A DNA stretch of 891 nt from Escherichia coli (GTDB taxonomy: Bacteria > Pseudomonadota > Gammaproteobacteria > Enterobacterales > Enterobacteriaceae): the NCBI RefSeq assembly GCF_003334305.1, contig NZ_QOWS01000066.1; one strand, given 5' to 3'. The translations under genes were made by a program, and so were the position numbers. Positions 59-105 of the stretch are shown in pieces; within the stretch, counting starts at the first letter, position 1, and each line of letters opens with the position of its first letter. The notes under the pieces are model-generated. The model saw nothing but the letters and a program-made list of their open reading frames with translations, was not told the DNA's origin and ran no database searches.

Positions 59-105
59 ATGCCGTATCGGGCCTTGGGTTCTAACCTGTTGCGTAGATTT
101 ATGCA
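59..105 (+). other. Target-binding loop of the bridge RNA (internal loop closed by the 50-58/106-114 stem) carrying two short guide segments
   Basis: Segment 66-74 ATCGGGCCT and segment 90-96 TGCGTAG lie on opposite sides of the loop. TGCGTAG is the reverse complement of CTACGCA. ATCGGGCCT is 8/9 identical to ATCAGGCCT. I recall the IS621 target as ATCAGGC-CT-ACGCA (a REP-like site). Confidence 0.7.

Follow-up and report, generated by a model that had tools for sequence, protein, structure and literature searches.

Two guide segments of opposite sense in the target-binding loop of an Escherichia coli IS621 bridge RNA match the halves of its natural insertion sites

The window, an 891-nt stretch of Escherichia coli DNA analysed over its whole length, harbors a target-binding loop in which a pair of guides, opposite in sense, reads the halves on either side of a CT dinucleotide in a REP-like target. 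This is the function published for the IS621 bridge RNA (PMC11208160, PMC11208158), and the genomic flanks, the empty insertion sites and the natural co-variation of guide and flank agree with it. The same interpretation had been offered by a sequence-only reading of the window; it is supported with near certainty, the conservation of the right target half being the one qualification. The guide finding is correct but already known, as it was published in 2024 for the exact sequence (PMC11208160, PMC11208158). The only item that is possibly new is a set of partial left-end duplications breaking at four internal CCT sites.

Over its 891 bp, the window showed 100% identity to copies that carry the annotation 'IS110-like element IS621 family transposase', and it matched 13,077 places in 2,244 of the 5,426 complete E. 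coli genomes. It is the first 891 bp of the 1279-bp IS621 (IS110 family), a length that counts one CT, and it stops short of the element's right end, where the left donor half and the -35 box are located. The open reading frame that runs off the window encodes the recombinase. The full 326-aa protein, taken from a genomic copy, matched the 'IS621 transposase' of PDB 8wt6 (E = 4e-220) and also ISCro4 (PDB 9t56, E = 2e-192), and contained the Pfam domains DEDD_Tnp_IS110 (PF01548) and Transposase_20 (PF02371). The catalytic residues D11, E60, D102 and D105 were present, as was S241 in the full-length copy. A recombinase with a DEDD (RuvC-like) and a Tnp domain is thus encoded directly 3' of the bridge RNA on the same strand, the boundary being 193/194. 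The parts of this region, outside the guides, are as follows.

17-193, + strand: bridge RNA, 177 nt; nucleotide n of the RNA is window position n+16
17-49, + strand: 5' stem-loop from the fold; 13 pairs, 4 with compensatory changes, 98% of cells paired
50-58, + strand: 5' arm of the closing stem of the target-binding loop, GCAGTCCGC
59-105, + strand: internal loop of the target-binding loop, from sequence, fold and literature
76-87, + strand: small hairpin between the guides (76-79 with 84-87) from the fold; 100% of cells paired, 1 compensatory change
106-114, + strand: 3' arm of the closing stem of the target-binding loop, GCGGACTGC
194-891, + strand: recombinase open reading frame from translation, the first 232 codons of the 326-aa IS621 recombinase

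All the residues named in the cryo-EM paper fell on the correct window bases at the offset n+16, i.e., G53 at 69, A81/U82 at 97-98, A131 at 147, U159/U160 at 175-176, G161 at 177 and G166 at 182; hence, window 17-193 is the published bridge RNA. The RNA encoded here is the IS621 bridge RNA itself, not a relative. Its minimum-free-energy fold (-64.5 kcal/mol, z = -3.6 against shuffles) formed the 9-bp closing stem and showed the expected bridge RNA architecture, in which a 5' stem-loop precedes two internal loops, each closed by a stem. Across 8 distinct variants, among them an 82%-identical Enterobacter orthologue, 95% of the cells in the stems were paired, and 6 pairs carried compensatory changes as against 0-2 in slid controls. 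Positions 50-58 (GCAGTCCGC) are perfectly complementary to 106-114 (GCGGACTGC) over 9 bp, so the enclosed loop is exactly 59-105. In the 8 variants, this closing stem was paired in 100% of cells, with one compensatory change from G-C to A-U and one wobble change. The single-sequence fold also paired the right guide with the loop itself (90-95 with 100-105); this pairing was conserved in only 73% of cells and was rejected, its weak conservation being as expected for a segment that is free to vary. A scan of the window against Rfam 15 at E up to 1 returned no family match, so there is no curated RNA family against which membership could be confirmed; this is no argument against the RNA.

Within the loop, the segments that read the target are arranged as given below.

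66-74, + strand: left target guide, AUCGGGC plus CU (ATCGGGCCT; bridge RNA 50-58)
90-96, + strand: right target guide, UGCGUAG (bridge RNA 74-80), the reverse complement of CTACGCA
97-98, + strand: handshake guide AT (A81, U82), which the sequence-only reading did not mention

The left guide has the sense of the left flank plus core, and the right guide, which begins 16 nt after the left guide's end (15 nt between), is antisense to core plus right flank. Within the right guide, AG at 95-96 pairs with the core, 93-94 pair with AC and 90-92 pair with GCA as an optional extension. Owing to the + strand polarity of the RNA, the only partner open to 66-74 is the bottom strand across the left target and core, and that open to 90-96 is the top strand across the core and right target. 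The opposite-strand pairing that had been proposed from the two senses is the one observed by cryo-EM, in which the left guide is bound to the bottom strand and the right guide to the top strand (PMC11208158). The dinucleotide at 97-98 pairs, after strand exchange, with donor positions 6-7, the AT of ACAGTAT (PMC11208158). Each guide match is unremarkable on its own in the whole window: the expectation over both strands is 0.27 occurrences of ATCAGGCCT, allowing 1 mismatch at most, and CTACGCA is expected 0.10 times. Both matches in the observed order and sense arose in 9 of 2,000,000 shuffles of a 47-nt loop of the same composition.

The donor-binding loop and the element's left terminus hold the corresponding parts.

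1-2, + strand: CT core dinucleotide at the left junction, the strand-exchange site; single in the empty site
3-7, + strand: right donor half TGTAT, from sequence, read by the donor-binding loop
139-147, + strand: left donor guide of the donor-binding loop, ACAGTATC, equal to the element's last 7 nt plus the first core base
173-183, + strand: right donor guide (173-174 and 177-181; bases 175-176 flip out), then the donor-loop handshake guide at 182-183; from sequence compared with the published residues

The second loop thus matches the element's own right end plus core and its core plus left end. Positions 139-146 (ACAGTATC) equal the right end ACAGTAT followed by the C of the core, and the left donor guide was invariant in the 8 variants; the right end itself read ...AACAGTAT followed by CT in every copy in which a right end could be detected. 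The stretch 177-181, GCAAG, runs antisense to CTTGT apart from a single G:T pair, which has been published as G161:dT12 (PMC11208158). The donor loop was nearly invariant among E. coli variants, and many of the differences between relatives fell in the guide segments.

Flanks were read at 28 loci and at two more from a genome scan; copies with the canonical guides occupied 14 distinct sites. The consensus of these sites was ATC[A/G]GG[C/T]-CT on the left and CT-AC (once AT) on the right. The left flank was ATCAGGC at 11 sites (one of them with an ATCAGGT allele), ATCGGGC at one (yacH/lpdA) and ATCGGGT at two (yeeA and the plasmid-borne mmuM region). CT stood at both junctions at 12 of the 12 sites where both were read; the core of the plasmid site (L028) was read by eye and fits the pattern, and the right junction at priC/rsmS comes from one copy only (L001). 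The target assumed in the sequence-only reading is real, with genomic flanks of the form ...cttATCAGGC-CT(element) and (element)ACAGTAT-CT ACnnn, and the flank check that the sequence-only reading had called for found all 14 sites in agreement with the guides. In terms of individual copies, CT followed the left flank in 26 of 28 left junctions, the exceptions being a degenerate copy (L014, AT) and one with a converted flank (L001), and in all copies with a right end that could be located, ACAGTAT was followed by CT. Two empty sites, reconstructed with one CT only, were present intact, at 100% identity, in other genomes, namely, ATCAGGC-CT-ACGCA (ybiT/ybiU) and ATCGGGT-CT-ATCAA (yeeA); insertion is hence precise, and the CT core is conserved at both junctions and single in the empty site.

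The proposed right half CTACGCA held in part. The right flank started with AC at 13 of the 14 sites and with AT at one, so that CTAC is kept in natural sites, but G followed at target position 12 in only half of them (7 of 14), and the full ACGCA was seen at ybiT/ybiU only. At natural sites, the right guide works effectively over about 4 nt (GUAG against CTAC), 90-92 being an optional extension. The single-base difference at 69 had been taken either as a tolerated mismatch or as the sign of a copy that prefers a variant target. It is a tolerated rG:dT wobble, but it is not peculiar to one copy: G69 was found in each of the 18 copies sampled that share positions 1-193 with the window unchanged, as well as in two near-identical variants (L009, L011). 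Sites of both kinds, ATCAGGC and ATCGGGC, are used, the exact-match ATCGGG sites being occupied at L011, L006 and L028. G53 (window 69) is known to pair non-canonically with target T11* at ATCAGGC sites (PMC11208158), the rG:dT pair at target position 4 has been published (PMC11208160), and an assay across the genome mapped 173 insertion sites, of which 129 read ATCAGGCCTAC and two the exact match ATCGGGCCTAC (PMC11208160). Three sites, yeeA (L006), mmuM on a plasmid (L028) and mtr/yhbW (L021), had T at target position 7, where the guide base C72 expects C; this is a tolerated rC:dA mismatch, at a position also used by the handshake guide. The target rule recovered by the survey, ATC[A/G]GGCCTAC, is the published one; a few natural examples of retargeting are added to it.

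Copies with altered guides supplied these examples. A truncated plasmid copy at a non-REP site (L010) had the left guide ATCCAGC and the left flank ATCCAGC. Two copies at IS1397/kgtP (L012, L013) had the left guide ATCCGGC and the left flank ATCCGAC, a guide G again standing opposite a target A. The left guide ACCCGGC was found with the flank cttACCCGGC-CT in E. cloacae pCC32 (L027), Superficieibacter electus (L029) and Pseudenterobacter timonensis (L030), so the match of this guide and flank spans three other genera, Enterobacter, Superficieibacter and Pseudenterobacter. On pCC32, the right guide read ..UUGUAG as against ..UGCGUAG in IS621, beside a right flank CTACAT; at position 12, C92 is changed to T (U) and the flank G to A. 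Guide and flank thus co-varied in four left-guide variants (three exact, one with a single G:T) and at one right-guide position, in a small sample.

The copies themselves differ in condition. The one with the ATCCAGC guide, on plasmid pEC012-3, is truncated and dead: its start codon is ATA, the reading frame ends after ~100 nt, and it adjoins IS66. L012, L013 and L014 are degenerate, with a frameshift or an internal stop, and L014 starts with AT instead of CT and has an unrelated flank. The right-guide extensions of these three (ATGGTAG, GCGGTAG) had no flank match beyond CTAC, the extension ATGGTAG of L012 and L013 being mismatched to their flank ACGCT.

The resemblance of the loop to the target could also have arisen by descent, the two segments being left over from a REP copy that was captured or rearranged in the left end and serving no guide function. 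In favour of this, REP sequences are where the element resides, 66-74 and the REP 3' arm share one sense, and in a solo left-end remnant (L015) the stretch 61-74 is identical to the adjoining REP flank. However, the window contained no contiguous 14-nt copy of the target, even at 3 mismatches, and the partner arm GCCYGAT was absent from it except as the reverse complement of the guide itself; moreover, the halves lie in opposite sense on either side of a conserved hairpin, guide variants match non-REP flanks (the plasmid copy L010), and published retargeting follows guide mutations (PMC11208160). A relic of this kind is extremely improbable. A contiguous REP palindrome with ATCAGGCCTAC and the partner arm GCCTGAT was likewise sought in the window and was not found; the REP-relic reading was rejected.

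According to the view held before 2024, the recombinase protein alone would recognise the REP target, and the loop would be a structural or regulatory part of the 5' UTR of the recombinase mRNA. The position of the RNA directly 5' of the reading frame (193/194), where the two would be co-transcribed, is what such an arrangement predicts. This view is nevertheless hard to reconcile with closely related recombinases that occupy different flanks matching their own loop sequences, with RNA-DNA duplexes at both guides in the published structure (PMC11208158), and with published controls without bridge RNA, which gave no recombination (PMC11208160); it is left with a negligible probability. Guide function of the loop has been published for the same sequence: reprogramming the guides redirects recombination (targets T1-T7), and the RNA binds the recombinase with a KD of 2.1 nM (PMC11208160). 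Nothing found here contradicts guide function of the loop.

The path from element to insertion can be outlined from these parts and from one further feature.

5-10, + strand: -10 box TATTAT, by consensus match; the promoter is complete only with the right and left ends joined, as in the circular form

By consensus match, the promoter at the joined ends consists of TTGCAG in the right end, a 17-nt spacer crossing the junction and TATTAT, followed by 6 nt to A17. Window 1-260 alone held no complete sigma-70-like site. With the -35 box in the right end and no complete promoter in the window alone, the + strand RNA is expected to be made from the circular form, and a junction promoter driving + strand RNA from the circular form has been published (PMC11208160). 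Circular excision would join the right and left ends, assembling the promoter from which the + strand is transcribed from position 17. The 177-nt RNA would then fold into the 5' stem-loop and two internal loops and bind the IS110-type recombinase. In the target-binding loop, the left guide would take the bottom strand of left target plus core and the right guide the top strand of core plus right target, while the second loop (about 139-183) would likewise read the element's own joined ends, ACAGTAT-CT-TGTAT. A recombinase tetramer would cleave and exchange strands next to CT, and the 1279-bp element would land between ATC[A/G]GGC and CT-AC, usually inside a REP sequence. For this scheme, transcription, RNA-protein binding, the cryo-EM strand assignment and the effect of reprogramming were taken from the literature; element identity, loop anatomy, the match of flank and guide, single-CT precision and natural co-variation were demonstrated in the present analysis.

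The same guides might act by another route, in which a shorter processed target-loop RNA ('seekRNA' or truncated loop RNA) and copy-out or top-strand-only transfer would take the place of the full-length RNA and a Holliday junction. The two loops in the IS621 complex do come from two different RNA molecules (PMC11208158), and a 2025 preprint argued for copy-out and a truncated-loop RNA pathway in another IS110 element. For other IS110 elements, the steps after guide pairing, i.e., cut-out against copy-out and the role of truncated loop RNA, are still debated. The shorter-RNA route has, however, been described for elements other than IS621, and it is an unlikely one here; what it would alter in any case are the steps that follow target recognition, and 66-74 and 90-96 would keep their function.

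Partial copies of the left end were also observed. In 13 E. coli genomes among the best matches listed, a left-end fragment of 47, 72, 85 or 114 nt lay directly before a full IS621. One duplication of each length class was checked, and all were 100% identical: L018 2001-2047 (break 47/48), L016 2001-2072 (72/73), L017 2001-2085 (85/86) and L008 1501-1614 (114/115). The breakpoints coincide with all four CCT sites of window 14-193, each just before the CCT, and with none of the 6 other CT sites; the 72-nt class breaks inside the guide-coding DNA, at ATCGGGC-CT. Plain copies occupied the same chromosomal sites in other strains. The left-guide DNA (66-74) is necessarily a mimic of the target, and we put forward, as a tentative possibility that is rather doubtful at present, that IS621 may occasionally use its own left end as a recombination target, both there and at the remaining internal CCT sites. 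A circle would insert into a resident left end, and the long direct repeat would then collapse by homologous recombination. If true, the duplications would preserve, in nature, the traces of off-target or self-target activity, for which C7 plus CT would be the minimal requirement. Junction queries (right end, CT and window 75 onward; exact tandem right end and left end) returned as two-piece places only ones 140-350 nt long, which are separate neighbouring copies, and no nested or tandem copy. No description of left-end self-insertion was found in the literature searched.

Other remnants and altered ends were noted. A solo left-end remnant (L015 1501-1581: 1-72, CT, ACGG) lies inside a REP adjoining IS1397, and about 555 E. 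coli genomes hold only a ~72-nt left-end remnant at 92.6% identity. As 61-74 of L015 is identical to the upstream REP flank, its exact breakpoint is ambiguous. IS1397 (IS3 family, also REP-specific) lay a few hundred bases or less from an IS621-family copy or remnant at L012, L013 and L015, which suggests that some REP clusters collect both IS1397 and IS621. At priC/rsmS, the left flank of L001 (1489-1502) was cttaACAGTAT-CT as against cttATCAGGC-CT at the same site in L019 and L023; the L001 flank equals the last 8-9 nt of the element's right end, and the same 9-nt right-end tail preceded the left end in two O26 genomes (H231-H232). In three genomes (H226-H228), the cellulose synthesis gene bcsG matched the IS621 right end, with a few bases more, over 54 nt (92.7%); the match possibly represents a right-end remnant.

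Bridge RNAs, which specify target as well as donor DNA for a recombinase, are the first guide RNAs known to do so, and they are under development for genome engineering. The value of the present finding is that of a control, as both guides, the core and the wobble position were located from raw sequence; it holds no new biology. With respect to the IS621 bridge RNA's target-binding loop (Durrant et al. 2024, PMC11208160; Hiraizumi et al. 2024, PMC11208158; PDB 8wt6-8wt9), the molecule is the same and there is no difference. The seekRNA of ISEc21 (IS110 family) and of IS1111 elements (Siddiquee et al. 2024, PMC11187229) is likewise an RNA of a non-coding region with two short matches to opposite target strands; it is programmable, and it is co-purified with the DEDD transposase. 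As in the window, the bottom-strand match precedes the top-strand match in the IS110 type, whereas the seekRNA is described as shorter (70-100 nt), and that of IS1111 lies 3' of the transposase gene with the two matches in reverse order, unlike the window (PMC11187229). ISCro4 (PDB 9t56) and IS622, compared here through the ISCro4 recombinase, have a closely related recombinase and the same two-loop RNA logic but different guide sequences and targets. In CRISPR-associated transposons and in TnpB/IscB with their omega RNAs, RNA-DNA pairing selects the site, as it does here, but one guide reads one strand of one DNA; in IS621, by contrast, one loop carries two guides that pair with opposite strands flanking the crossover, and a second loop reads the donor.
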